64,000 nucleotides of DNA from an uncultured Hyphomicrobiales bacterium (lineage in GTDB: Bacteria > Pseudomonadota > Alphaproteobacteria > Reyranellales > JAQSWP01). Numbering within the stretch: the stretch's first letter is position 1; every line of letters begins with the position of its first letter. Location: the NCBI GenBank assembly GCA_964458605.1, contig CAYWLS010000005.1, positions 81,244 to 145,243 on the forward strand, read 5' to 3'. Made by a program: the position numbers and the translations under genes. Positions 44,274 through 64,000 of the stretch are shown piece after piece. Below the pieces are notes generated by a model that was not told the origin of the DNA, made no database searches, and saw nothing but the letters and a program-made list of their open reading frames with translations.

Positions 44274-45806
44274 TCACCGCTTCTGCCAATCCCCCAACTG
44301 CTCGACCGCATGGGCGGCGCGGATGGTGGCGGCTTCGTCGAAGTGTTTGCCCACCAGCATGATGCCGATCGGCAGGCCGTCGACCGTGCCGCAGGGCGCG
44401 GTGAAGGCCGGGTGGCCGGACACGTCGAACGGACAGGTGTTCTGCTGCATGTTCAACGCCAGGTCGACATAGTCCTCGCGGCTGGCATCGAGGCCGGGAA
44501 TCTTGGTCGCCGGGAACGGCAGGGTCGGCATGGCCAGCACGTCGTATTTCCGCAGCGCCGCGTCGTAGGCGGCGCGCAGCCCGACGCGCAGGTTCTGCGC
44601 CTTGGCGTGGTAGCGGTTGTGGTAGTGGGTGTGCATGTAGTCGCCCAGCAGCAACACGAGTTTCACCGTCTCCGAGACATCGTCGGCGCGGGCCCGCCAG
44701 CCGCGCGCGAAAGCCTCCTGCAGGGAGGTGGTGTAGTAGCCCATCCAGTTGTTGCCCATGGCGTAGCCCTTGATCATCATCTCGGCCGCGCCTTCCAGGA
44801 TCACCCCGGTCCAGATATGCGGCGCGTCGAGATGCTCGGGGATCGACACCGCCTCGACGATGGCGCCGGCCTTCTTCAATGCCGCCAAGGTCTGCTTCAC
44901 CTTCCTGTCGGTCTGCGGCGTCAGCCTGTTGCCGGTGGGATGGCCGAAACCCTGCGGCAGCACGCCGATCTTCAGGCCCCTGACGCTCTTCTTCAGCGCC
45001 CCGCGATAGTCGCCGACGGCGGCGTTGATGGTGCGCGGATCGTGCGGATCGGGCCCGGCAATGACGCTCAGCAGCAGCGCCACGCTCTCGACGCTGTCGC
45101 AGATCGGCCCGCAGTGATCGACCGAATAGGAGATCGGCATGCTGCCGGTGGTCGGCACCAGGCCCCAGGTGGGCTTCAGCCCGTAGACGCCGCACCAGCC
45201 GGAGGGCGTGCGGATCGAGCCGCCCTGGTCGCCGCCGATCGCCATCGTTACCTCGCCCGCCGCCACCAGCGCGGCGCTGCCGCCGGACGAGCCGCCGGCC
45301 GAATGGGCGGGATTGCGCGGGTTGCGGATCGGCCCGGTGGCGCAGGTGTGGCTGCCGGCGGAGAAGCACAGATCCTCGCAGGCCGCCTTGCCGGCGATGG
45401 TGCCGCCGGCCTCGAGGATGCGCGTCACCACTGTGGCGTCGATATCGGGCACGTAGCCTTCGAGCAGCCGCGAGCCGTTCATCATCGGCACGCCGGCGAC
45501 GCAGATATTGTCCTTGATGGCGACGCGCTTGCCGGCAAGCGGCCCCTTGGCCGCGCCGGCGATGTCGCATTTCCAGTACCAGGCGTTGAACGGATTGTCC
45601 TTCACGTCCGGCCGATGGCCCGGCGTGCGCGGATAGGCGACCGGCAGCTTGGGCTCGGCCAGCTCGTCGAGCCGCGCATAGGACGCCATCGAGCCCGCCA
45701 TCAGGCCACGGAACGACACCGCGTCCTCCTGGGTCAGGGTCAGGCCGAATTTGCGGCCGATGGCGATGAGCTGCTCGGGCGTGGGCAGGCGCGGCGGAAT
45801 GGACAT
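44274..45806 (-). CDS. amidase-signature (AS) family amidase
   Basis: GGSSGGSAA signature and Ser-cisSer-Lys context. 510 aa. Confidence 0.92.
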   Translation of the reverse strand: MSIPPRLPTPEQLIAIGRKFGLTLTQEDAVSFRGLMAGSMASYARLDELAEPKLPVAYPRTPGHRPDVKDNPFNAWYWKCDIAGAAKGPLAGKRVAIKDNICVAGVPMMNGSRLLEGYVPDIDATVVTRILEAGGTIAGKAACEDLCFSAGSHTCATGPIRNPRNPAHSAGGSSGGSAALVAAGEVTMAIGGDQGGSIRTPSGWCGVYGLKPTWGLVPTTGSMPISYSVDHCGPICDSVESVALLLSVIAGPDPHDPRTINAAVGDYRGALKKSVRGLKIGVLPQGFGHPTGNRLTPQTDRKVKQTLAALKKAGAIVEAVSIPEHLDAPHIWTGVILEGAAEMMIKGYAMGNNWMGYYTTSLQEAFARGWRARADDVSETVKLVLLLGDYMHTHYHNRYHAKAQNLRVGLRAAYDAALRKYDVLAMPTLPFPATKIPGLDASREDYVDLALNMQQNTCPFDVSGHPAFTAPCGTVDGLPIGIMLVGKHFDEAATIRAAHAVEQLGDWQKR

Positions 45807-45882
45807 GCTTTCTCCTACTGGCTGGCGCGAGCCGCGGCGAGCGGCCGGCGCTGGCGGAACCGAGCCGGATTAGACGGCGCTT

Positions 45883-45907
45883 TATTTTACTTTTCAATCA
45901 ATTTTGC
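45883..45907 (+). promoter_or_regulatory. AT-rich operator-like motif, copy 2 (between divergent amidase genes)
   Basis: TATTTTACTTTTCAATCAATTTTGC. A CATAAT -10-like hexamer lies at 45915..45920, ahead of ATG 45963. Confidence 0.55.
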
Positions 45908-45962
45908 CCCAGGGCATAATGCGGCGACGCCAACCGCATTTCGCCATTTCGGAGGGAGCATC

Positions 45963-47477
45963 ATGACGATCAAGCGCGCCACTTTGGGCCAGTTGCAGGA
46001 CATCGCCCGCGATCTGGGCATCACCATGACCGACGAGCGCGCCGCCGAATTCCTCGGCCTGATGCAGGGCAATTTCGACGCCTACGAGATCCTCGAGCAG
46101 ATGCCGGACTACAAGCCGGTGGTGAAGTATCCGCGCACGCCCGGCTATCGGCCCGAGGGCGCGGAGAACAAATACAACGCCTGGTACGTCAAGAGCACGG
46201 TCAAGGGCGCCGATTCGGGCAAGCTCAAAGGCAAGACCGTGGTGCTGAAGGACAATGTCTGCCTGGCCGGCGTGCCGATGATGAACGGCGCCTCGACCCT
46301 GGAAGGCTACACGCCCGACATCGACGCCACCATCGTCACGCGCATCCTCGACGCCGGCGGCACCATCGTCGGCAAGGCGCATTGCGAATTCTTCTGCCTG
46401 TCCGGCGGCAGCCACACCAACGCCATTGCCCCGGTGCACAACCCGTGGAAGATGGGCCACTCCGCCGGCGGCTCCTCCTCGGGCTCGGGCGCGCTGGTGG
46501 CGGCGGGCGAGGTCGATATGGCGATCGGCGGCGACCAGGGCGGCTCGATCCGCATGCCCTCCTCGTTCTGCGGCATCTACGGCATGAAGCCGACCCACGG
46601 CCTGGTGCCCTATACCGGGGTGATGCCGATCGAAGCCACGATCGATCACACCGGACCGATGACCAAGGACGTGGCCGACAACGCGCTGATGCTGGAGGTG
46701 CTGGCCGGCGAGGACGGACTCGACCCGCGCCAATACGCGCCCAAGGTGCACGACTACACCAAGGCGCTGGGCAAGGACGTCAAGGGCCTGAAGATCGCCG
46801 TGGTCAAGCAGGGCTTCGGCCACGCCAATTCGGAGAAGGATGTCGACGACTGCGTGCGCGCCGGCGCCGCGCACTTCAAGACGCTGGGCGCCACGGTCGA
46901 GGAGATCGACCTGCCGATGCATGCGCTGGGCCCGGTGATCTGGACGCCGGTGGCGCTGGAAGGCCTGCAGGCGCAGATGATGTGGGGCAATGGCATGGGC
47001 TACAACTGGAAGGGGCTCTACACCACCAGCCTGCTCGACGCCCACGCCAACTGGCGCGCCAGGGCCGACGAGCTGTCGGACAGCCTGAAGATCTCGATGT
47101 TCGTCGGCGAATATTTCATCAAGCACTATCGCGGCCACTACTACGCCAAGGCGCAGAACCTGGCGCGCAAGCTGAAGGCGGCCTACGACGCGGTGCTGGG
47201 CCAGTACGACCTGCTGCTGATGCCGACCCTGCCGGTCAAGTCGACGCCGATCCCGCCGGCCGACGCGCCGCTGGCGCTCTACCTGCAGCGCGCCTTCGAG
47301 ATGATCGGCAACACCGCGCCGTTCGACGTCACCGGCCACCCGTCGATGACCATTCCCTGCGGCCTGCGCGAGGGCCTGCCGGTCGGGCTGATGCTGACGG
47401 GCAGGAGCTACGACGAGCCGACCATCTATCGCGCCGCCCATGCCTTCGAGCAGAGCGGCGACTGGAAGAAGATGTAA
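45963..47477 (+). CDS. amidase-signature (AS) family amidase (paralogue of 44274..45806)
   Basis: ATG 45963 with GGAGGGA RBS, in frame within artefact ORF 44214..47477. GGSSSGSGA signature. Confidence 0.92.
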   Translation: MTIKRATLGQLQDIARDLGITMTDERAAEFLGLMQGNFDAYEILEQMPDYKPVVKYPRTPGYRPEGAENKYNAWYVKSTVKGADSGKLKGKTVVLKDNVCLAGVPMMNGASTLEGYTPDIDATIVTRILDAGGTIVGKAHCEFFCLSGGSHTNAIAPVHNPWKMGHSAGGSSSGSGALVAAGEVDMAIGGDQGGSIRMPSSFCGIYGMKPTHGLVPYTGVMPIEATIDHTGPMTKDVADNALMLEVLAGEDGLDPRQYAPKVHDYTKALGKDVKGLKIAVVKQGFGHANSEKDVDDCVRAGAAHFKTLGATVEEIDLPMHALGPVIWTPVALEGLQAQMMWGNGMGYNWKGLYTTSLLDAHANWRARADELSDSLKISMFVGEYFIKHYRGHYYAKAQNLARKLKAAYDAVLGQYDLLLMPTLPVKSTPIPPADAPLALYLQRAFEMIGNTAPFDVTGHPSMTIPCGLREGLPVGLMLTGRSYDEPTIYRAAHAFEQSGDWKKM

Positions 47478-47547: not shown

Positions 47548-47847
47548 TCAAAGCCGCTGCGATAGGCGGGCTTTGGCGTGGCGGTCTCTCCAGACGCGCT
47601 CGAACGCCTCGCGGCTGATTTCGACGGGCTCAAATACCGGATTGCTGGCGATCTCGGCAAGGGGCGGCACCGGATAGACGCCTAGACCGGTATCGCCGAC
47701 TTCTCCGGTCGCATCGGCATAGCCGCAGCTTCCATCGGCATGAAGCTCGACCTTGCGAACCTCATAGCGCTCCTCGTCCAGCTCGCTATAGAGCCAGACC
47801 GGCAGATCGGCGTCGGAATGGATCCATTTGACCTTGATATCGCGCAT
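47548..47847 (-). CDS. hypothetical 99-aa protein
   Basis: Clean ORF in lower-G+C DNA with an AT-rich divergent promoter shared with kptA. Function not recognised. Confidence 0.6.
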   Translation of the reverse strand: MRDIKVKWIHSDADLPVWLYSELDEERYEVRKVELHADGSCGYADATGEVGDTGLGVYPVPPLAEIASNPVFEPVEISREAFERVWRDRHAKARLSQRL

Positions 47848-47894
47848 AATGATCTATCAATATATTTACATTCCGCTTCGACGCCACTGCATGC

Positions 47895-48444
47895 ATGGCC
47901 AAGACTGACGAATCGCTGAGCAAATATCTCAGCTACATCCTGCGCCACCGGCCCGACGAGATCGGGCTGCAGCTCGATGGGCAGGGTTGGGCCGCGGTGG
48001 CGGAACTGCTGGCCAAGAGCGCGGCGCACGGCCGCCCTATCGACTTCGGCGCTTTGGTGAATGTCGTCGAGAACGGAGCCAAGAGCCTCGTCCTTGTCCG
48101 AAAACCGGACTCGGATCCGCGCATTGCAAGGGCATTCCGTCCCGATCGAGCTTGGCTTGCAGCCGGTGCAGCCGCCCGCGCTTCTGTACCACGGCACCGC
48201 CTTGAAGTTTCTCGATTCGATCCTGCGGACAGGGCTGGCGAAACAGGCGCGCCATCACGTCCATTTGTCGAGCACGCCGGACAGCGCCTGGATCGTCGGG
48301 CGCCGACGCGGCAAGGCCGCGATACTCCAAATACAGGCGGAACGGATGCACCGCGACGGTTTTGCGTTCATGCGAGCCGAGAACGACGTCTGGCTGACCG
48401 ATGCCGTGCCGACGAAGTATTTCAAACTGCTAGCTCAAGATTGA
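47895..48444 (+). pseudogene. kptA: RNA 2'-phosphotransferase KptA/Tpt1, interrupted by a single frameshift
   Basis: The N-terminal part is in the 47895 frame (LSKYLSYILRHRPDEIGLQLDGQGWAAV..VVENGAK). The remainder is in the 48061 frame (SENRTRIRALQGHSV..LLYHGT..HHVHLS..NDVWLT). The junction lies near 48075..48095. Confidence 0.8.
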
Positions 48445-48553
48445 GCCGCGGCGGCGATAGTGGACTCTGGCGATAGTGGACTCTAGAGCCCGACGCTCGC
48501 TTCAGGAACCGACTTTGTCACCCCCCGCATCAGCGTTTTGACCTCCGCCCGCT

Positions 48554-48904
48554 TCATGATAAGCCGAACTGGGCCTTGAATTCGCTCTCGCTGATGACGC
48601 TGACGGGTAGAAACAGCGACTTGTCGTCGGGATCGCGCAAGCCATCGATGTTCAACATGTGCGGCGTCGGCGGATAGGTGCACACGACCTGGGCCACGAA
48701 CGCTTTGCCCGCCAGATCGGGATTGTCCTTGGCCGCGCGGCCGGCTTCGGCGAAGTGCATGCACAGCCCCGGCTTCTTGTGTAGCAGTTCCTCACGCTCA
48801 CGCGGATCGCCGATCGGCTCGTTGTCGAAGATCACCAGCGCCAGGCGGTGGTCGTCGTTGGGCAGCCGCACCACCATGTCGATCGCATCGCTTCTCAGGC
48901 TCAT
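48554..48904 (-). CDS. immunity-like small protein (paralogue of 60865..61257)
   Basis: 116 aa. Shares the identical 13-mer QVVCTYPPTPHML and a C-terminal E.F.AQFG motif with 60865..61257. Downstream of the toxin-like gene. Confidence 0.7.
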   Translation of the reverse strand: MSLRSDAIDMVVRLPNDDHRLALVIFDNEPIGDPREREELLHKKPGLCMHFAEAGRAAKDNPDLAGKAFVAQVVCTYPPTPHMLNIDGLRDPDDKSLFLPVSVISESEFKAQFGLS

Positions 48905-48952
48905 GGTTTCACCGAAAGATAAGAGTTCGGATGGATTGGCATCGGTCAGGCA

Positions 48953-49714
48953 TCAATACCGATCGCGCAGCGACGGCAGATCGCGCGGCACGAAGCCATG
49001 ACGCTCTCGGAATTCGGCCTCGGTCACGAACTCGACCGGCAACACGATATCAGGGTATGTCGGATCGCTTACCGATGTGATCGCGCGCATTGCCGGGGTC
49101 GGCATCGCGGCATAGACAACTTCGATCAACGGCCTATCGCTAGAGAACACATAATTATATTCCTCGAAGTCCCCCGAGGCGACACGAGCGGCGCAGCGCA
49201 GCAGCTTTTCATGCAGCGTTGCCTCTCGCTGTGCGGCGCTGGCCACTCGGCCGTCATCCAGCACTACAATAGTGCCGCCGAGTTGCTGGCCCTTGACGTG
49301 CACAAGGAGATCTCCGGGAGATCGCCCGATCCACGTCAGCCATTCGACGCCCAGCTTGATCCGTTGCTGAACCTCATTTAGGGACAAAATTGTATACGAC
49401 TCGTTACCGGCCCAGACATCATCCCATGCTGGTAAGTGGAGCAGAAGAGGATCAGGACTTCTTCCTCTATAGGCCAATTGCGTGATGAACGGCCGAGGCG
49501 TCCCTGTCGCCGTTGCTAGATTTGCACGATCTTCGGGCAAGTCCCACTCAGATTCGGGCTCGCCGTCAAAATAGAGTTCCAGCCACGCCAAGTCATCAAC
49601 ATTACAATGCAAGACATTATTCCATGCATAGGTTTCTCCAAAATTCCGAAAGCACGCCGTAAGGACGCCGATATCCAGCGGCTTTTTGGAGAAGAAGAAA
49701 AAAGAGTTCGCCAC
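48953..49714 (-). CDS. immunity-like protein, fusion of two domains found as separate genes at 61257..61655 and 60865..61257
   Basis: 253 aa. The N-half aligns to the 132-aa ORF (NESYTILSLNEVQQRIKLGVEW vs NEYGVIFTVREIQRRLKSGEEW). The C-half aligns to the 130-aa ORF (EAEFRERHGF vs LEGFYAQFGM). It begins 15 nt after the toxin stop. Confidence 0.7.
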   Translation of the reverse strand: MANSFFFFSKKPLDIGVLTACFRNFGETYAWNNVLHCNVDDLAWLELYFDGEPESEWDLPEDRANLATATGTPRPFITQLAYRGRSPDPLLLHLPAWDDVWAGNESYTILSLNEVQQRIKLGVEWLTWIGRSPGDLLVHVKGQQLGGTIVVLDDGRVASAAQREATLHEKLLRCAARVASGDFEEYNYVFSSDRPLIEVVYAAMPTPAMRAITSVSDPTYPDIVLPVEFVTEAEFRERHGFVPRDLPSLRDRY

Positions 49715-49729
49715 GTTGAATCCTCAATC

Positions 49730-52384
49730 TCACTTAAATTTATCCAATAAATCCTGACGATTTTTGATAGGTGTATGGCCTTTACCAGCGATAGATTTCT
49801 CCGCGTGCCCCATATTGCGACTATACCCAATCCCGGGCAATCCAGACACACTCACCGCGCGATCAAGTTGCTCCGCAAGTCCACTGGCGCTGCTGCTTTC
49901 TTCAATGACATATTTCCTCGTGACGATATCAACTTCTTTTCTTAAAAGCGGGTTGTTCAAATCGATGATGAAGCAATGCACGCAGACCACTTCGTTTGGG
50001 TGGTTTTTCTCAATCTCATTGGCGAGCCCGGCTACTCGGCGCTGTGACCTGTTTTGGCCTGCATCAATCGCCGTTGCTTGAAATGATCTCGTGCCATCTG
50101 CACTACGCACTTCGCTGCCCTTATCCGCCCGCCAAAGAAACTGGCCAGGTGATTTTGTCGAAGTCGAAGGCATCGGCAACAGAATCGTATCGGGCTTGTA
50201 AGCTGCGGCAAATTTCGCCACATCCGCTTCGGTCTTGATCAAGCCTGCCGACTGAAATGCCTTCATCTGGTCGGCGAAATCGACATGGTAAGCCGGATCG
50301 ATGGCGCGCTTCCATGCCGCCGCCGGACTACCCCATCCGGGCAGCGGCGGCGTTGGGCTTGGCAATGGTCTGCGCGGCGCACCCGGCGGCAGGTCAGTTG
50401 ACGGCTTCGCCCCCGCCGTCACACCCGGCTGCCCGACACTCCCCGGAGATTGACCACCCGGGCTCGGCTGCCCGGACGACGACGATGCAGCACTCGCTGT
50501 ACCTGGCTTTCTCGGCGGCACCGCAGCGGACCCGCCACCGCCGCTGTCGCCGCCGGCCGGGGCGCGGGCGATGCGGCTGCCGAAGCCGCCCATCATTCCC
50601 AGGCCGAAGCCGGTGAAGCCAGCCATCAGCGAATCGATGCCGATCTGAGACCAGGGCACTTCCTCGCCCCATCGCTCCCGCCATGGCTTGGTCAGCGATT
50701 CGCTGGCGGCGGTCTTTGCGCTGACCGCCGCGCCGGTCTTCAGGGCGTCGAGGGCGATTCTTCCGCCCTGCGTCTTGACGACGTTGGCGAGTTCGCCGCT
50801 GCCGATCGCCCGCAGCACGCTGGGAATGCCGATCCGGGCGATGTTGAAGATCTGCTTGCCGGCCATCCCCAGCGGAACGATGTTGGTCGGGTCGCTGACG
50901 AAGCCCAGCGTCTTGCCCGCCGCGCGAATGAACGGATCGTCCGGCGCATGGCCGATCTGATAGATCCGGTCTTGCATGGCGTCGAACAGGTCGGCCTTGG
51001 CTCGCGCTCGCTCCCGCGTCATGAACGGCTCGAACGGCATGGCGCGCTTCAGCTCGGGATCGTTGTTCCACTCCTCTTCGGTCAGGAACTCCACGCCCAT
51101 GCCGCGCAGCGCCTGTTCGATTTCCGCCTGCTTGGCCTTTCGCTGGTCTTCCGGCAGCGCCGCCAGGTACGACGCGAAGCCCTGCCGCACGTCGATCGGC
51201 CAGGGGAAACTGGCGATCTGGTCGGGCTTGCGCTCCCCGTTGAGGACGAGGCCGTAGAGGCGCTTCGTCTTCTCCGCGTCGAGCTGCTGGATTGCCGAAG
51301 GCGGCAAGGCGATCTCGTCGAGACCGCGGCCAACCCATTGGTGGAAGCCTTGCCCTATCTCGGCGCCGAAATAGCGAAAAGTCGGCGCCACATAAGGCTT
51401 GCTGTTCACAACGGCTTCGATATCGCTTGCCGACACCGTCGAGGCTGGCGCCGGCGGCGCAGCGGGTGACGGCGGCGACGCAGCCGTCGAGCCGCTGGCC
51501 GGGATGGTCGATGGATGGTCGCCATCGCCGCTGGCGATCGGACCGATGTCGCCGCCCGGAGGCGTGCCAGCGGCGCCGCCACCGGCGATGTCGTCGCCGC
51601 TGTCCTTGGCAGCGATATAGTTGGCGCCGGCATCGGTGACGGCGGCGAGCCTGGCATAGGTCGCCGGATCGACCTGGCCGGCGGCCTGGGCCAGCACGAT
51701 CCGCGCGCCGGGCACATTGCCGCTGTCGAACTGGCTGGCGATCGCCGCGCCGAACAGATGGCCGTTCCATTCGCTGGCGCGGCGATTGGTTTCCTGCGCG
51801 CTCCAGCCGTTGCGCTGGCCGATCTTGCGCCATTCGCCATCGCCGCGCGCCACCGCCAGATCGAGCCGGAACGGATCGTGGCTCCAGTAATGCGCATCGT
51901 GCAGATCGGCCGCCAGTGTGCCGAGCGATCCCAGGTCGAGCATCTGGCGATGCTGGCCAATGCGATAGCTTTGGCCGTCCTGCAGGTGCTCCTCATGCGC
52001 CTGGTCCAGGCGCGGCTGCAGCAGCGGCAGCACTGCCGGCGAAACGCTGGCGATGGCCTGGTCGCGATGGCTTTCCAAGGTGTTTCGATAGGTGTCGTAG
52101 GCGTCGGCCGCGCCGTTCTGGCCGCTCTGGCTGCCGTAATCGCCCAGCGCCGTCAGCGCGGCGCGGCGATAGACGTTCAGCGCGTCGTTGGCGGCGCTGT
52201 CATTGGCCCTAAGACGTCGGTCGAGCGAATAGGTGCGGTACGGGTCCGGCCCGGCCGGAGCGGTGCCGGACGAGACCGGATCGAACGGGATGATGTCGGT
52301 GCCGGGATCGAGGGCGGTGTCGGGATCGGGAGGGGCGAAGATAAGGGCCATGCGCGTCGCGAGCGTTGGATGGGGTCCGCCCAT
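49730..52384 (-). CDS. large modular polymorphic-toxin-like protein (toxin A), 884 aa
   Basis: Modules: an N-terminal region, a core shared with 61663..63282 (MPFEPFMT.., DPTN.., Gly-rich hydrophobic stretch), Pro/Ser/Gly linkers, and a low-G+C C-terminal domain homologous to the C-terminus of 61663..63282. An alternative start lies at 52351. Confidence 0.75.
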   Translation of the reverse strand: MGGPHPTLATRMALIFAPPDPDTALDPGTDIIPFDPVSSGTAPAGPDPYRTYSLDRRLRANDSAANDALNVYRRAALTALGDYGSQSGQNGAADAYDTYRNTLESHRDQAIASVSPAVLPLLQPRLDQAHEEHLQDGQSYRIGQHRQMLDLGSLGTLAADLHDAHYWSHDPFRLDLAVARGDGEWRKIGQRNGWSAQETNRRASEWNGHLFGAAIASQFDSGNVPGARIVLAQAAGQVDPATYARLAAVTDAGANYIAAKDSGDDIAGGGAAGTPPGGDIGPIASGDGDHPSTIPASGSTAASPPSPAAPPAPASTVSASDIEAVVNSKPYVAPTFRYFGAEIGQGFHQWVGRGLDEIALPPSAIQQLDAEKTKRLYGLVLNGERKPDQIASFPWPIDVRQGFASYLAALPEDQRKAKQAEIEQALRGMGVEFLTEEEWNNDPELKRAMPFEPFMTRERARAKADLFDAMQDRIYQIGHAPDDPFIRAAGKTLGFVSDPTNIVPLGMAGKQIFNIARIGIPSVLRAIGSGELANVVKTQGGRIALDALKTGAAVSAKTAASESLTKPWRERWGEEVPWSQIGIDSLMAGFTGFGLGMMGGFGSRIARAPAGGDSGGGGSAAVPPRKPGTASAASSSSGQPSPGGQSPGSVGQPGVTAGAKPSTDLPPGAPRRPLPSPTPPLPGWGSPAAAWKRAIDPAYHVDFADQMKAFQSAGLIKTEADVAKFAAAYKPDTILLPMPSTSTKSPGQFLWRADKGSEVRSADGTRSFQATAIDAGQNRSQRRVAGLANEIEKNHPNEVVCVHCFIIDLNNPLLRKEVDIVTRKYVIEESSSASGLAEQLDRAVSVSGLPGIGYSRNMGHAEKSIAGKGHTPIKNRQDLLDKFK

Positions 52385-57185: not shown

Positions 57186-57209
57186 GACGGAATCCGGAAC
57201 GATTCCGTC
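57186..57209 (-). terminator. hairpin downstream of the lysis cassette
   Basis: GACGGAATC-cggaac-GATTCCGTC forms a perfect 9-bp stem. It lies 16 nt past the spanin stop. Confidence 0.5.
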
Positions 57210-57224
57210 AAAAGGCGATTTGCT

Positions 57225-57497
57225 CTAGCGGGCGGCGGCGAGCTTCCTGATCTCGGCCATGTTGGCCTGGCAGGCATGCAGCGCCGCCAGCGCGATCTCA
57301 ACCACCGCGGCGGCGTCCTTCTGCGTCGCGATCGGCCGGGGCGCGGGGTCGTCGGGGCAGACCAGCAGCGCCTGGGGGATGGTGACGCGCTCGACTTTAG
57401 TGACGACGATCGGCGGCGCAGGCTGGGGCGTGCCACAGGCGGCTAAAGGAAGCGCACAGCACATCGGCCACAGGGCCATCCTGCTCGGGCGGCGCAT
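57225..57497 (-). CDS. o-spanin (Rz1-like outer-membrane lipoprotein), overlapped with the i-spanin gene
   Basis: Signal and lipobox ALPLAAC followed by a Pro-rich mature part. The gene starts inside the 3' end of 57397..57813 in another frame. Confidence 0.7.
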   Translation of the reverse strand: MRRPSRMALWPMCCALPLAACGTPQPAPPIVVTKVERVTIPQALLVCPDDPAPRPIATQKDAAAVVEIALAALHACQANMAEIRKLAAAR

Positions 57498-57813
57498 TCT
57501 GGATCTCCATCAGGCGTTGGTTGAGATCGGCGTTCTCCTGCTGCAGCCGGACCAGCCGCGCCGCGGTGGCGGCATCGGTCATCGCCTGCCAGGCCTTCAG
57601 CGCGGCGATCGCCTGCCGTTGCTCGAGCGCGGCCTGGGCGGCGATGCGCGTGCGGTAGTCGGCGAACGCCGCGCGCTGCTGCGCCAGCGCGCTGTCGCTG
57701 CGCTGCAGGCGCAAGGTCTGCACGCCCAGCAGCACGGCCAGCGCGATCAGCGGCCATAGCCAAAGCGGCAGCTTGCGCACCGCGGCCAGCGCAAGAGACA
57801 GGCTCGCGCTCAC
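57397..57813 (-). CDS. i-spanin (Rz-like)
   Basis: GTG 57813 overlaps the endolysin-like stop (GTGA). N-terminal TM LPLWLWPLIALAVLLGV is followed by a coiled-coil-like Ala/Gln/Arg-rich region. Confidence 0.7.
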   Translation of the reverse strand: MSASLSLALAAVRKLPLWLWPLIALAVLLGVQTLRLQRSDSALAQQRAAFADYRTRIAAQAALEQRQAIAALKAWQAMTDAATAARLVRLQQENADLNQRLMEIQNAPPEQDGPVADVLCASFSRLWHAPACAADRRH

Positions 57814-58589
57814 GACGTCGCCCTGGCCGGCCGGTTCTTCTGGCGCTGCAGCCACCAGTGCCAGGCCAGGCCGGCGGCGATCAGCGCCAGCAGCGCCACC
57901 CCGCCCCATTTGAACAGATAGCCGTATTGCTGCAGGAACGTCTGGCCGCGCTCGATGACGACGCCGGGATCGATCGGCGCCGGGATCGACCCCGGCGGCG
58001 CGGCCGGCAAGCCGGGCAGCGGCGGCGGATAGGTCGGCGCGATCGCGCTGCCGGTGGCGGCAGCGGTTGCCGCAGCCGCGCCGGCGGCCGGCGCCATCGT
58101 GCCCAGCGGCCTTGGCGGGCGCAGCACGCCGTATTGCGCCAGGCCCCAATCGATCTGCTGGTCGTTCCACCAGCGATAGGGATCGCCGCCCTGCTCGACC
58201 GCGGCCATCGCCAGCAGCACCGGCTTGAGATGCGCGTAGCGATGGAAGTCGAGGACGGCGTTGGCGGCAAAGCCGGTGGCGCCCGTCACGCGCGCGATAT
58301 AGGCGGCGGTGTCGTTGCGATCCTGCGGCGGCGCCCAGCCCGGCCGATAGTCGGGCTGGCCGTAGCTGCCGCTGCCGCCGATCAGCGTCGCGATGGTGTC
58401 GTGGCCCCAGCGGTCGTAATGGGCGATCACGTTGCCCGCCGCGCAGCGCCAGCCCTTGGCCGGCCCGTCGAAATGCAGGAAATCGCCGGCGCCGGTGTGT
58501 TCGACGGCGATCACGCCTTGCCATTTGCTGCGGCCATCGGGTCGCACATTGAGCGGATTGTTGAAGCGCACGCCGGAAGGAAGAGCCAT
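57810..58589 (-). CDS. putative endolysin-like protein with C-terminal TM anchor
   Basis: Positioned between the holin-like and spanin genes. N-terminal RFNNPLNVRP..W.G motif, a Pro/Ala linker and a C-terminal TM WGGVALLALIAAGLAWHWWL. Enzymatic class not established. Confidence 0.5.
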   Translation of the reverse strand: MALPSGVRFNNPLNVRPDGRSKWQGVIAVEHTGAGDFLHFDGPAKGWRCAAGNVIAHYDRWGHDTIATLIGGSGSYGQPDYRPGWAPPQDRNDTAAYIARVTGATGFAANAVLDFHRYAHLKPVLLAMAAVEQGGDPYRWWNDQQIDWGLAQYGVLRPPRPLGTMAPAAGAAAATAAATGSAIAPTYPPPLPGLPAAPPGSIPAPIDPGVVIERGQTFLQQYGYLFKWGGVALLALIAAGLAWHWWLQRQKNRPARATS

Positions 58590-58597
58590 CGGTCACC

Positions 58598-60309
<1,712 letters not shown>

Positions 60310-60443
60310 TCACGGCGCTCCTCCACCGGCATTGTCTTGGCGTCGCCGCTTGGCGCGGCGATCGTAGCCAGGGTGGTAAGCCCGCGACCGGTTGGCGAGC
60401 AACAATCAGCTATTCACAGGGGGGCGGAGGCGTGGCCAATTGG

Positions 60444-60750
60444 TCATGGCGGCGATCCAATTCGCCAACGGCTTGGACCAGGCGGCAAAGACGTGCTGGG
60501 TATTACCGCCGATGCCCCGGCTTCCGAGCAGCGGTGCATCACCGTCCGCAACGGCGCCCCGCCGATGCCGGCCAGCGCATTGTCCGGCAGCGATGCCGCG
60601 CCATGAACTGCCCCGGCAGCGAATGCCACCAGCCGTCGCCGAACTTCGCCGCCAGGTACTGGCCCAGCGGCGTCTCGTAATCCGTCAGCGCCTGAAAGTA
60701 CCCCCCGCATCCGCTACACGATCGCTCTCGATCGGATCAAGCAGGTCCAC
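60444..60750 (-). pseudogene. decayed duplicate of the 5' end of toxin B
   Basis: 60545..60750 aligns nearly base-for-base with 63068..63282. ATG is replaced by GTG, and single-base indels cause frameshifts and an early stop. Similarity decays with indels down to about 60444. Confidence 0.8.
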
Positions 60751-60864
60751 CAGCCCGGCCCCTCATGCTCGAAGCCGGCAACACAACGATATTTATGCCC
60801 GGCACTTTGCTCATCGACCACTCGATAGTCGCAACCATCGAGTGATACCAGAACAGCCGCTGCA

Positions 60865-61257
60865 TCAGGTCGGGTTTCGTTCCACAGATTGCGCCGCGCC
60901 GGGCGGCCTCATGCCGAACTGCGCATAGAAACCCTCGAGGCTCATCACCTCGACCGGCACGATCACCGACTTGTCCTCGCGGCTGCGCAACGCATGGATC
61001 TCCAGCATATGCGGTGTCGGCGGATAGGTACAAACTACCTGGATCACCGCCGCCTTGCCGACCACGCTGGCGTCGAAATTCTCCATGGCGCCCGACGTGA
61101 TGATCTTGAGATAGCCGGCGAGCTTCCTGTGCAACAATTGCTCACGCTCACCCGCGTCTGCGATCGGCTCGGCGTCGAAGATCACCATGGCGATACGTCC
61201 GTCTTCGTCCGGCAGCCGCACCGCCATGTCGAGATTGGTCGGTTCGTTCAATGCCAT
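60865..61257 (-). CDS. immunity-like small protein (B2)
   Basis: ATG 61257 overlaps the upstream TAA by 1 nt (TAATG). Paralogue of 48554..48904 (QVVCTYPPTPHML). Confidence 0.7.
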   Translation of the reverse strand: MALNEPTNLDMAVRLPDEDGRIAMVIFDAEPIADAGEREQLLHRKLAGYLKIITSGAMENFDASVVGKAAVIQVVCTYPPTPHMLEIHALRSREDKSVIVPVEVMSLEGFYAQFGMRPPGAAQSVERNPT

Positions 61258-61655
61258 TACAGGAACTCCTCGCCGACCGTCTCCCACTCCTCGCCGGATT
61301 TCAGGCGACGCTGGATTTCCCTTACAGTGAAAATCACGCCGTATTCATTACAAATGAATAAATTATCAGTAGCTGGAAGCCGGCTGACCGCTAAGTTAAC
61401 TGACACCGAGTTTCTGAACGGTAGACCCGCAAAAAAAGGGCGACCAATCAAAGCGAGTAATCTGACCTTCTCATCTGGTTCGAATTCTGCCAGCACAGAA
61501 TCCGTCCCTCCCAAATCGATATGAAACCAACCCCAGTCATCATTCTGAACCACCAACCTTTCACCATAAACCGCAGCTTTGCCAATATCGTGGTACAGAT
61601 CGGCAAGGGCGGGCAGGTCAAGATCTCTCTCGGAAACAATGATCATCTCTTTCAT
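61257..61655 (-). CDS. immunity-like small protein (B1)
   Basis: 132 aa in low-G+C DNA. Starts 7 nt after the toxin B stop. Homologous to the N-half of 48953..49714. Confidence 0.7.
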   Translation of the reverse strand: MKEMIIVSERDLDLPALADLYHDIGKAAVYGERLVVQNDDWGWFHIDLGGTDSVLAEFEPDEKVRLLALIGRPFFAGLPFRNSVSVNLAVSRLPATDNLFICNEYGVIFTVREIQRRLKSGEEWETVGEEFL

Positions 61656-61662
61656 GCGCGCC

Positions 61663-63282
61663 TCATGGTTTGATAACCTCTCTGAGCAGCTTTTCGTCTT
61701 TGGTCACCAGTCCCCCTGCATTGCCAATGCCTCGAATGATGCTAGGACCCAAATCTGGTCCATAGCCGATAGTCGGAAAGCCAGTTAGCTTTTCGTACCG
61801 TAATACTTGATGGGTAAGTTTTCCGCCTGTTCCTGCTTTTACCTGGATCACTGCATTGCGAGTCAAGATATCGATTTCTCCTACTTTATCTCCAGTATGC
61901 GGGTCGATTAGCTCGCAATTAGTGCAAACGACATGTCCCGGATTGTCCCGCTCGATTTCATTGGCGCGGTCAGCTACATGCTTATCGGTCGACGCAAAGC
62001 TTCGTCTGCCATCCTTGCCGATGCTGATCGGGGTCGTTTCCTTTAGCACGAGTTTAGGAGAGGTTATGCCCTTGGCATAGTTGGCCATGCCAAAATGTAC
62101 CTGGTCGGCCCGATATTTGTAGCCGTTGTCGATGAAATCTTGAATAGCGACACCAAACAATTTGTGTTTGTCTGCCAGACTCATCTGATCGAGGAGTTGT
62201 TCGATAGGCGTATTGCCTAATGCACCGGTCACCCGTGCGCCGGATTTTGCAGGAACAGAAGCTACTGAAAGTTGTTGGCTGGTTACTCCGCTCATCCCCG
62301 CAGGTGACTGCGTCGGTACAACGGTGTTTGGGCCTAGCCCAGATGCATTAGCCAAGGGATTTCCTGGAGTAACGCCACTTGGCATGCTCTGAGTTTGTAA
62401 TGAAACTTTCCCGCCAACCGGCTCCTGGGGCGACCGCAGGATGCGGACACCATGGGCGCCCGCGCCCACCACGCTGCCCAGCGCCGCCGCCAGCCCCGCA
62501 TTGCGCCAGATCTCGCTGTCGCTTAGCGTCTCGCCCCAGCGCGCCAGCGGCTGCTTGATCGCATAGCCCTGCACCACCGCCGGCAGCGCGCCGCTCAGCG
62601 CCCCGATGCCGCCAGCCTTCGCCAGTGTCAGGCCACCGGTACGCGCCAGCCCCAGCACCAGCTTGCCTCCCGCGCCCCAGCCCAGCAGGTTGGTCGGGTC
62701 CGCCGCGCCCCCCGCCATCCCCGCCAGGAACCCCAACGTGCCGCTCAGCACGCCATCCGGCCGATGCGCGATCAGCCAGTCCCGCACCCGGTTGGTGTCG
62801 TAGATCGCCGCCTTCGCCTTGGCCCGCGCCGGCGTCATGAACGGCTCGAACGGCATGTCCCGATAGTCCGGCGACGCCCGCCACTCGGCCTCGGTGTAGA
62901 ACCTGTAGCCCGCCTGCTTCAGCACCTGCTCAACCTGCGGCAGGACCTGCTGCCGCTGCCCCGCCGGCAGGGCGTTCAACCGCTCCATGACCAGGTCCTG
63001 CGGCAACGGCGTGCTGGGCATCGCCACCGACGCCCCCGGCTGCCGCGCGGCCACCGGGATCAGGTGCATCACCGTCCTCAACGGCGCCCCGCCGATACCT
63101 GCCAGCGCATTGTCCGGCAGCGATGCTGCCGCCATGAACTGCCCCGGCAGCGAATGCCACCAGCCGTCGCCGAACTTCGCCGCCAGGTACTGGCCCAACG
63201 GCGTCTCGTAATCCGTCAGCGCCTGAAAGTAGTCCCCCGCATCCGCCACACGATCGCTCTCGATCGGATCAAGCAGGTTCAT
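61663..63282 (-). CDS. polymorphic-toxin-like protein (toxin B), 539 aa
   Basis: ATG 63282 overlaps the stop of the upstream gene (ATGA). The core is homologous to toxin A. The low-G+C C-terminal domain has ANEIE, VVCTNC and EIDILTRNAVIQVK motifs. Confidence 0.75.
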   Translation of the reverse strand: MNLLDPIESDRVADAGDYFQALTDYETPLGQYLAAKFGDGWWHSLPGQFMAAASLPDNALAGIGGAPLRTVMHLIPVAARQPGASVAMPSTPLPQDLVMERLNALPAGQRQQVLPQVEQVLKQAGYRFYTEAEWRASPDYRDMPFEPFMTPARAKAKAAIYDTNRVRDWLIAHRPDGVLSGTLGFLAGMAGGAADPTNLLGWGAGGKLVLGLARTGGLTLAKAGGIGALSGALPAVVQGYAIKQPLARWGETLSDSEIWRNAGLAAALGSVVGAGAHGVRILRSPQEPVGGKVSLQTQSMPSGVTPGNPLANASGLGPNTVVPTQSPAGMSGVTSQQLSVASVPAKSGARVTGALGNTPIEQLLDQMSLADKHKLFGVAIQDFIDNGYKYRADQVHFGMANYAKGITSPKLVLKETTPISIGKDGRRSFASTDKHVADRANEIERDNPGHVVCTNCELIDPHTGDKVGEIDILTRNAVIQVKAGTGGKLTHQVLRYEKLTGFPTIGYGPDLGPSIIRGIGNAGGLVTKDEKLLREVIKP

Positions 63283-64000
63283 TGCGGCAGCCCATCGATG
63301 GCGTAGCTGGGGAGCTGATACTGCGCAGGGTAGCCCAATAGCATCCCGGGAGGCAGCACCGCCCAATCGCGGTGCTCCTTGCCGAGCGCCAGCACTTGAT
63401 CAAGTGTGAAGACGAGCGGGCGGCCGGTTTCGTCCGGCAGCAACTTGCCGCTGCTCAACACCAACGCATATTCGCCGTCCTTGCCGCTCTTGAAATCGAT
63501 CCAGCGGGCCTTGGCGCTCTCTTGCGCTGCCGTTGCTTTGGCCATTTCCACCAGTTGCGAATCATCCTCGGGCAATCGCTTGAGGAAGTAGTTGGCGATC
63601 AGTTGGCCGCGCAAATAGTGAAATCCTTGAATCAGGCGTTCTTTATCCCCTTCCGCCGCCCGAGGAATGAATGCCGCCACCAAATTCTGATCGATCAACG
63701 GCACACGATCGCCCATCACCGCGCCAATTCCCGCGCCTGGATCGGGCCGATCGCGCGCTACATTGGCGATCATCGTCGCTTCTTCTATGCCCCTGTTGCG
63801 ATAGTCTTCGTTATGCGTCCATTGTGTCGTCATCTCGTAAACGGCAAAATATGGCGCAAACGGACTCATCTTGCGAAGCAGGTCGGCATGCTCGTCTGGG
63901 CTCAGCTTATGATGGGCGACGATGCTGGATTGAAGGAGATCCAGGGCTCCATCCTCATTGCCGCGACCGGCGGCCTGCACTATGTAGGGCAGCGTCTTGG
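63279..64000 (-). CDS. hypothetical protein translationally coupled to toxin B, 5' end outside window
   Basis: The reading frame is open to the window edge. No family recognised. Confidence 0.6.
   Translation of the reverse strand, partial: KTLPYIVQAAGRGNEDGALDLLQSSIVAHHKLSPDEHADLLRKMSPFAPYFAVYEMTTQWTHNEDYRNRGIEEATMIANVARDRPDPGAGIGAVMGDRVPLIDQNLVAAFIPRAAEGDKERLIQGFHYLRGQLIANYFLKRLPEDDSQLVEMAKATAAQESAKARWIDFKSGKDGEYALVLSSGKLLPDETGRPLVFTLDQVLALGKEHRDWAVLPPGMLLGYPAQYQLPSYAIDGLPQ

Follow-up and report, generated by a model that had tools for sequence, protein, structure and literature searches.

The 64,000-nt stretch of DNA analysed here (the window; contig CAYWLS010000005.1 of an uncultured Hyphomicrobiales bacterium) includes, near its right-hand end, the last part of the late region of a prophage of podovirus type. 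In this region a predicted toxin gene (toxB) and two putative immunity genes are followed, on the minus strand, by a short fragment that duplicates the 5' end of toxB, and then by a tail-fibre gene. We consider it likely that the fragment, together with the sequence behind it (60295-60750), is a non-functional deletion scar, in which the 5' end of a second gene sharing the N-terminal part of toxB (the trunk gene, encoding an internal-virion or ejected protein) is fused to the 3' end of a further, large virion gene (denoted big). The scar consists of the following parts:

60533..60750, minus strand: trunk-gene 5' stump (internal-virion / ejected protein), codons 1-73; 96% identical to toxB 63057-63282 over 218 nt, with six synonymous changes, one non-synonymous change and the change of the start codon
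60482..60532, minus strand: continuation of the stump, more diverged, about codons 78-95; corresponds to toxB 62999-63056, with a protein-level match GAS..PST..LP
60466..60481, minus strand: putative deletion junction between stump and big remnant, position approximate; toxB similarity ends at ~60482, similarity to big starts from 60465 in another frame
60295..60465, minus strand: likely decayed 3' end of the ~880-aa internal virion protein gene (big), ~56 terminal codons; the protein-level alignment covers 60307-60465, and a DNA alignment adds the rest

The duplicated 5' end of toxB

By local alignment and with a repeat finder, minus-strand positions 60482-60750 are recognised as a direct repeat of 62999-63282, where the first ~95 codons of toxB are located (repeat-finder entries D4, D7 and D12 with 97%, 87% and 96%, respectively). 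For 60545-60750, which a preliminary description of the window had recognised as repeating the start of toxin B (toxB) nearly base-for-base, the alignment columns comprise 198 matches and 8 mismatches (198/206), in agreement with that claim. For 60482-60544, aligned to the toxB 62999-63056 side, they comprise 53 matches and 10 mismatches (53/63). The step in identity between both parts is significant (Fisher p=0.002), with a divergence of 4% followed by 16%; along the sequence, identity to toxB is 96% as far as 60533 and about 80% below. A tblastn search of toxB against the fragment results in E=6e-31, with the match spread over three frames. The alignment/dot-plot comparison proposed earlier as a check was run, and the similarity is not confined to low-complexity sequence. 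Low complexity or chance as the source of the similarity is ruled out by 269 aligned nt together with the tblastn E-value.

The reading frame of the copy is disrupted. The start codon is GTG (60750-60748) where toxB has ATG, and two single-nucleotide deletions are located at codon 17 (between 60702 and 60701) and at codon 51 (between 60600 and 60599), respectively. Translation from the GTG reads V-D-L-L-D-P-I-E-S-D-R-V-A-D-A-G-G-T-F-R-R and stops after 21 codons; all of these lesions had been listed in the preliminary description, and all are present in alignment and translation. A further length difference is found around codons 74-82, where an 11-nt gap after 60533 and a 1-nt gap add up to a net 12 nt, corresponding to four codons in frame. 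The four-codon difference falls where trunk homologues also vary. Overall, the copy holds only ~95 of the about 540-630 codons of a trunk gene, the gene being truncated as well as disrupted in its frame.

With respect to the boundaries of the copy, homology to toxB begins within a few bases of the copy's start codon. The adjoining 114 nt (60751-60864) show no likeness to the 3' end of the gene upstream of toxB, except for a GGGCTG hexamer, and the boundary stands as originally described. The start of toxB overlaps the stop codon of its upstream gene (ATGA, 4 nt), and the same overlap is found in the related loci L001 and L003; on its upstream side the second copy thus begins at the edge of a gene. 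At the other end, weaker similarity does continue below 60545, as had been reported, but it does not reach ~60444: likeness to toxB stops at ~60482, and 60444 is merely the stop of a frame-shifted open reading frame (ORF; 60444-60710). Below 60465, the 3' end of another gene is the better match.

The substitutions between both copies are informative about the history of the fragment. The fragment was projected onto the codons of toxB, and changes were evaluated using Nei-Gojobori counts and a binomial test. Within codons 2-73, six of seven substitutions are synonymous (codons 12, 29, 52, 61, 62 and 69) and the seventh is the conservative replacement N2D, the change of ATG to GTG being additional. 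The synonymous and non-synonymous divergences are dS = 0.13 and dN = 0.006 (dN/dS = 0.05; synonymous excess p=0.0012). For codons 2-94 the synonymous fraction is 11/17, with dN/dS = 0.17 (p=0.0007). Under neutral decay ~25% of changes are expected to be synonymous. The differences are mostly synonymous, and both copies therefore appear to have diverged while encoding protein. Judged from these codon counts, the fragment is probably no rotting copy of toxB: it would have been a working gene during its divergence from toxB, and would have been frameshifted and truncated only late, after the coding divergence. The earlier designation as a "decayed duplicate" of the toxin B 5' end thus holds insofar as the fragment is a copy, and fails insofar as it implies simple decay of toxB, given the six of seven synonymous changes.

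We note that the duplication is also found in other read sets, covering at least two sequencing runs, from which Logan contigs were retrieved by exact-protein look-up. Contig L004 equals window 63159..60717 (100% identity), L005, from another run, equals 63116..60717 (99.96%, one mismatch), and L006 equals 60628..57200 (100% identity). L004 and L005 carry the junction between immunity gene and fragment; L006 carries the stretch from the fragment to the fibre gene, including the codon-51 frameshift, the 11-nt gap and the big-gene remnant. The frameshift at codon 17 sits in a stretch of 89 nt (60628-60717) whose interior is spanned by neither of the Logan contigs. Short-read assemblies are interrupted at this repeat, and the contigs on both sides end within it, with breaks only inside its near-exact core, as in de Bruijn assemblies. 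A collapsed or mis-joined repeat is nevertheless scarcely credible, since 8 substitutions and several indels distinguish the two copies, and since the unique junctions on the immunity side (L004, L005) and on the fibre side (L006) are reproduced independently. The concern that the duplication might be an assembly artefact is thereby answered, by Logan contigs in place of the long reads suggested originally.

The junction with a second virion gene

In related loci the trunk gene is followed by a large gene. The loci L003 and L007 show the order upstream gene, trunk (595-630 aa), big (858-885 aa) and fibre gene, with the N-terminal domain of the fibre as in the window. Locus L001, which together with L002 was obtained as a Logan contig by homologous-protein look-up, shows the upstream gene, a 544-aa trunk and an 880-aa big gene, after which the contig ends. 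The cultured Pelagibacter phage HTVC203P has an internal virion protein D (490 aa), an internal virion protein (856 aa) and a tail fibre in the same order. Full-length matches to the big protein are found among the virion proteins of 127 deposited phages. In the window, no tblastn match to the big gene is obtained at E<=1e-3, and the gap between toxB cassette and fibre gene is just 576 nt.

The 193 nt between the end of the toxB similarity and the ATG of the fibre gene were translated. The minus-strand frame from 60465 to 60307 reads ANWIAAMTNWPRLRPPVNS*LLLANRSRAYHPGYDRRAKRRRQDNAGGGAP* and aligns with the big protein of L007 (L7_885, 885 aa) at its residues 826-881 (...ARWVEGLTPFANLFYIKAPLDYLILNSMREALSPGYLRRQEKRMKQDYGQGYYMP...). 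The BLOSUM62 local score of this alignment is 63, compared to 27.0+-3.6 for shuffled sequences (0 of 1000 shuffles reach 63). For 658 real 193-nt windows tiled over the 64 kb, the scores are 27.7+-4.2, with a top score of 48 outside of the locus. All full-length big homologues (3/3) place their best match in the same frame and at their extreme C-terminus (last 60 residues), and a DNA alignment extends the remnant to ~60295, within about 10-20 nt of the fibre ATG (60288). Positions 60307-60465 are hence likely, albeit not proven, to represent the 3' end of the big gene.

A remnant of a canonical trunk C-terminus was sought in 60289-60481 and none was found above background (scores 29-34); the C-terminal domains of toxB and of toxA, the toxin of a second locus, have no match in the fragment, in which only codons 1-95 of toxB are represented. 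The stretch 60289-60481 holds only the likely remnant of big, followed by the tail fibre, and no immunity gene. Lacking both toxin domain and immunity gene, the fragment is no classical orphan module, in line with the preliminary description; the proposal that it is left over from an older gene copy, located downstream of the toxin-immunity block, is upheld as well.

History of the locus and alternative explanations

The simplest history that would account for these features is as follows. On the minus strand, the ancestral order would have been an upstream virion gene, toxB, two immunity-type genes, a second trunk gene, the big gene of ~880 aa, the fibre gene and the lysis genes. The N-terminal trunks of toxB and of the second trunk gene would have been near-identical, with a synonymous divergence of ~13-19% under purifying selection. 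A later, single deletion of ~3.8-4.1 kb would then have removed everything between codon ~95 of the second trunk gene and the ~56 terminal codons of big, the size being derived from the lengths of homologues (trunk 544-630 aa, big 858-885 aa). The two 1-nt deletions would have accumulated as well, either before or after the large deletion. The tandem arrangement itself may have originated from duplication of the trunk and capture of a low-GC toxin-immunity cassette (GC, guanine plus cytosine), or from the insertion of a block or a recombination event involving a related phage. The event that set the cassette boundary at 60750 would be separate from the deletion. The second trunk gene may have been a canonical structural gene or another toxin-tipped one.

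A different account was given in the preliminary description, according to which one incoming toxin-immunity block landed on an ancestral gene located just upstream of the fibre gene, and truncated or displaced it. We regard this as unlikely. It is in accordance with the foreign composition of the stretch from the toxB linker to 60751 (49-61% GC versus ~70%), with a homology that begins within a few bases of a start codon and hence at a gene boundary, and with the position of the fragment between block and fibre gene. The point of truncation (~60465-60482), however, lies ~270 nt from the block edge at 60750; the arrival of the block therefore did not cut the gene, and a separate deletion of ~4 kb is proposed instead. 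Likewise, the ancestral copy most likely was not directly upstream of the fibre gene, as the ~880-aa gene intervenes between trunk and fibre in L003, L007 and HTVC203P, and likely left a 3' remnant here. The comparison with related prophages that had been suggested to recover the uninterrupted ancestral arrangement yielded no close intact example; the distant relatives show trunk, big and fibre in succession.

A recent segmental duplication of the toxB 5' end, generated by slippage or by unequal exchange between concatemers, never functional and decaying neutrally, is very unlikely in our view. While the identity of 96% over 218 nt, the two frameshifts and the lack of an intact ORF would be typical for such an event, the excess of synonymous changes (6/7 in codons 2-73 and 11/17 overall, with p about 0.001 against the expected ~25%), the 12-nt length difference in frame, the stepwise divergence (4%, then 16%) and the fusion of the copy to sequence resembling another virion gene are not. 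We also see very little reason to assume that the fragment was retained as useful, be it as a homology arm for cassettes, for expression signals of the fibre gene or for a small peptide (ORF 60444-60710). Recombination within conserved trunk sequence is a known source of diversity in polymorphic toxin loci (Zhang et al. 2012, PMC3482391), and the 5' 218 nt are the best conserved part of the copy; but no promoter-like or terminator-like site was found in 60100-60864, and frameshifts and stops speak against a coding role. Moreover, there is no second example: none of the loci found in the genome, metagenome and viral scans carries the fragment. A young scar with two 1-nt lesions requires no selective explanation.

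Several observations weigh against a deletion scar, too. The synonymous divergence is uneven, with dS = 0.13 for codons 2-73 and 0.49 for codons 78-94, albeit at small counts. Weaker constraint on the protein largely accounts for the higher divergence of codons 78-94, but some mosaicism or gene conversion may have contributed. The remnant of big is short and decayed, with two in-frame stops and an indel. A hidden Markov model (HMM) of three big C-termini ranks 60307-60465 first in a six-frame search of the window, yet only at E=0.18, and tblastn with an 80-aa big query gave E=0.013 in a search space of 700 nt. The nature of the second trunk gene has to be judged from 95 surviving codons. Relatives with a trunk identity of only 35-41% had to serve for reconstructing the ancestral order, and no close relative with an intact arrangement was found among the genome, metagenome and viral contigs scanned. 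Finally, the window ends at 64000, and the missing genes may be located elsewhere on the 157,920-bp contig.

Taken as a deletion scar, 60295-60750 is expected to be inert. Within the window, this copy of the prophage would have lost two internal-virion genes and probably makes no infectious particles, provided that no other copies of these genes exist; it still has an intact toxB-immunity block, fibre gene and set of lysis genes. The fragment is thus unremarkable in kind, the leftover of a deletion in a decaying prophage, in a context of moderate interest. Scars of defective ("grounded") prophages are similar in that a truncated and frame-shifted remnant of a structural gene fuses the ends of two neighbours, and in that essential virion genes are gone while toxin-immunity and lysis genes are intact. 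The sole oddity of the present case is the duplication, at one end of the scar, of the 5' end of an intact toxin gene nearby, which gives the scar the look of a cassette footprint. The orphan modules of cdiA and rhs loci are likewise fragments downstream of an intact toxin-immunity unit that have sequence in common with the conserved part of the toxin. These orphans, however, have kept a toxin domain with an immunity gene and, ahead of the toxin domain, the 3' end of the conserved region, whereas the fragment described here consists of the first ~95 codons only, joined to the tail of an unrelated virion gene.

The significance of the scar lies mainly in annotation: the apparent cassette footprint is no evidence for a toxin-swapping mechanism. 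The mostly synonymous divergence indicates that the gene of an ejected virion protein was once present in two functional versions side by side, one of them toxin-tipped. With clearly less confidence, and at less than even chances, we suggest that a working temperate podovirus possessed two tandem ejected-protein paralogues, one canonical and one in which an RHS-type nuclease domain had taken the place of the cargo half, accompanied by immunity genes; this would be a virion-ejected polymorphic toxin system on a non-MuF trunk, born by duplication of a structural gene. If true, this would constitute a second route, other than MuF, for temperate phages to carry polymorphic toxins, and a concrete case of a toxin-tipped gene arising beside its structural parent.

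toxB, its immunity genes and the surrounding region

The genes of the region, in the direction of transcription, are:

63279..63980, minus strand: upstream virion-module gene, 233 aa; 29% identical to the C-terminal part of L1_445 (E=1e-10)
61663..63282, minus strand: toxB, 539 aa; trunk, linker and predicted C-terminal toxin domain
61257..61655, minus strand: candidate cognate immunity gene imm132, 132 aa; homologues follow the same toxin domain in L008 and L012
60865..61287, minus strand: second small gene, DUF6572-like, 130-140 aa; Pfam DUF6572 at E=1.9e-5, below the curated cut-off
60751..60864, minus strand: spacer of 114 nt from the stop of the second immunity-like gene to the stump, distal end of the low-GC block; 57% GC
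58852..60288, minus strand: tail-fibre gene, 478 aa; PHROG tail/tail-fibre families at the N-terminal domain (2e-23); Pfam Gly_rich_2
58598-58870, minus strand: small membrane, holin-like ORF
57810-58589, minus strand: endolysin (phrog_873)
57225-57497, minus strand: Rz-like spanin (phrog_456)

The toxB protein consists of a trunk (aa 1-283, encoded by 62434-63282), a Pro/Ser/Gly-rich linker and a toxin domain at about aa 420-539. The trunk is 41% identical to L1_544 and 35% to L3_595, and matches phrog_342 (internal virion protein). In an exhaustive HMMER search toxB behaves as two independent modules. Residues 1-285 correspond to the N-terminal part of a set of proteins, most of them 550-640 aa in length (range about 550-1045 aa), whose C-terminal parts are other than the toxin domain of toxB, either non-toxin or of the ddrB-ParB, Zeta-toxin, PBECR3 or RelA/SpoT type. 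Residues ~420-539 match the C-termini of variously sized proteins (45-59% identity), including RHS-repeat and pretoxin-HINT proteins. Four positions of the toxin domain, E74, D101, Q110 and K112 in alignment numbering, are invariant in a 33-sequence alignment (A3) and form an E..D..QxK signature. The AF2 model of the domain has a mean pLDDT of 82, and its best Foldseek matches are Can2, Card1, VC1899 and NucS/EndoMS, all weak (E=1e-3 to 6e-2, TM-scores 0.4-0.47); the domain is predicted to be a PD-(D/E)xK nuclease. No family is assigned to toxB by Pfam (E<=0.01), NCBIfam or PADLOC, PHROGs return phrog_342 only, and a sequence search of the PDB with toxB found nothing.

In L008 and L012, two of the three additional contexts examined, the same toxin domain is immediately followed by a homologue of imm132, and a further homologue forms the N-terminal half of immA253, next to toxA. 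The second small gene is 53% identical to immA116. The stop codon of imm132 overlaps an ATG at 61257 (ATGA), and the Logan gene call for the second small gene comprises 130 aa; the gene probably starts at 61257, encodes 130 and not 140 aa, and would be translationally coupled to imm132. toxB thus shows features of polymorphic toxins: a trunk shared among proteins with differing C-termini, a toxin domain that is also found on other trafficking classes, and an immunity gene downstream. Based on gene context and homology, toxB would be a phage ejected-protein trunk fused to a predicted toxin domain, for which the label "toxin" is justified by context, and looks like a non-MuF, virion-ejected polymorphic toxin.

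MuF polymorphic toxins (Jamet et al. 2017, PMC5576092; PMC3482391) share with toxB the N-terminus of a virion protein, a variable C-terminal toxin and a location in the late region of prophages, and the MuF toxin Bxa (PMC11699363) has two downstream immunity-type genes, as does toxB. In contrast to these, toxB has no Pfam MuF domain, and its trunk belongs to the podovirus internal-virion family that is encoded between tail-tube and fibre genes. A second group to be compared are the polyvalent phage proteins, which are packaged in the virion and injected, and for which ddrB-ParB, Zeta-toxin, PBECR3 and RelA/SpoT domains have been catalogued (Iyer et al. 2017, PMC5512222). Homologues of the toxB trunk bear domains of this catalogue and are encoded among virion genes. 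Such homologues have one or two of the catalogued effector domains (P0093, for example, carries a Zeta toxin and ddrB-ParB), whereas toxB has a single effector domain of RHS/PT-HINT type along with immunity-type genes, a layout characteristic of polymorphic toxins. A search of the literature, not exhaustive, found no description of a toxB-type trunk as a carrier of polymorphic toxins.

A second toxin locus in the window (locus A, 47548-52384) stands alone among host genes, with no phage genes nearby. The metagenome locus L008 shares this stand-alone layout. Locus A includes:

49730-52384: toxA, 884 aa; 330-aa N-terminal extension, trunk and the same toxin-domain family
48953-49714: immA253; imm132-like and DUF6572-like domains, fused
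48554-48904: immA116; DUF6572-like

The presence of the trunk in stand-alone chromosomal loci (toxA at 48.5-52.4 kb; L008) raises the question of how the toxin is delivered there.

The base composition divides the region into two parts. The phage backbone has a GC content of 71% in the toxB trunk, 67-68% in stump and big remnant, and 71-74% in the fibre and lysis genes. The toxB linker, the toxin domain and imm132 have 49-52%, the DUF6572 gene 61% and the spacer 57%; the toxin-immunity block is compositionally foreign within a phage backbone of ~70% GC. The low-GC block (~60751-62433) is flanked by trunk codons 1-283 on one side and by trunk codons 1-95 on the other, and the sharp fall in GC at 61257-62433 recurs as a dip at 49-50 kb in locus A.

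Relatives of the region are sparse. The toxB family is rare, with one further protein in a word-indexed protein search; a profile search with alignment A1 against a set of 5.8 billion proteins returned no matches. Scans with the trunk resulted in one genome locus (a distant metagenome-assembled genome), two distant metagenome loci and no viral loci. Viral contigs scanned with the endolysin gave no loci, and those scanned with the fibre N-terminus gave two unrelated phages, both without trunk or big homologues. INPHARED contains no match to toxB, and its matches at the DNA level are restricted to the collagen repeat and the fibre.

The fibre protein is composed of a T7-type N-terminal domain, a collagen-like tract and a glycine-rich domain, and its N-terminus is homologous to the fibre of L003. 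The collagen-like tract (59528-59833) shows a 9-nt periodicity and encodes Gly-X-Y repeats. This tract accounts for the DNA-level matches to deposited phages in Gordonia minor tail genes; matches to Xanthomonas/Xylella tail fibres are located further 5' in the gene.

The upstream ORF (63279-63980) matches only the last ~150 residues of homologues of 445-687 aa, with an in-frame stop at 63981-63983, and may be truncated as well; the window ends 20 nt past this ORF. On the opposite side, contig L006 ends at 57200, 25 nt past the stop codon of the spanin gene (57225). Position 57200 may be the boundary between prophage and host, or a site of strain variation. No tRNA genes were found in the window. 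Two paralogous amidase-like genes at 44274-47477 are arranged head-to-head and form an inverted repeat (45132-45762 / 46001-46631; 631 nt, 72% complementary), accompanied by shorter flanking inverted repeats.

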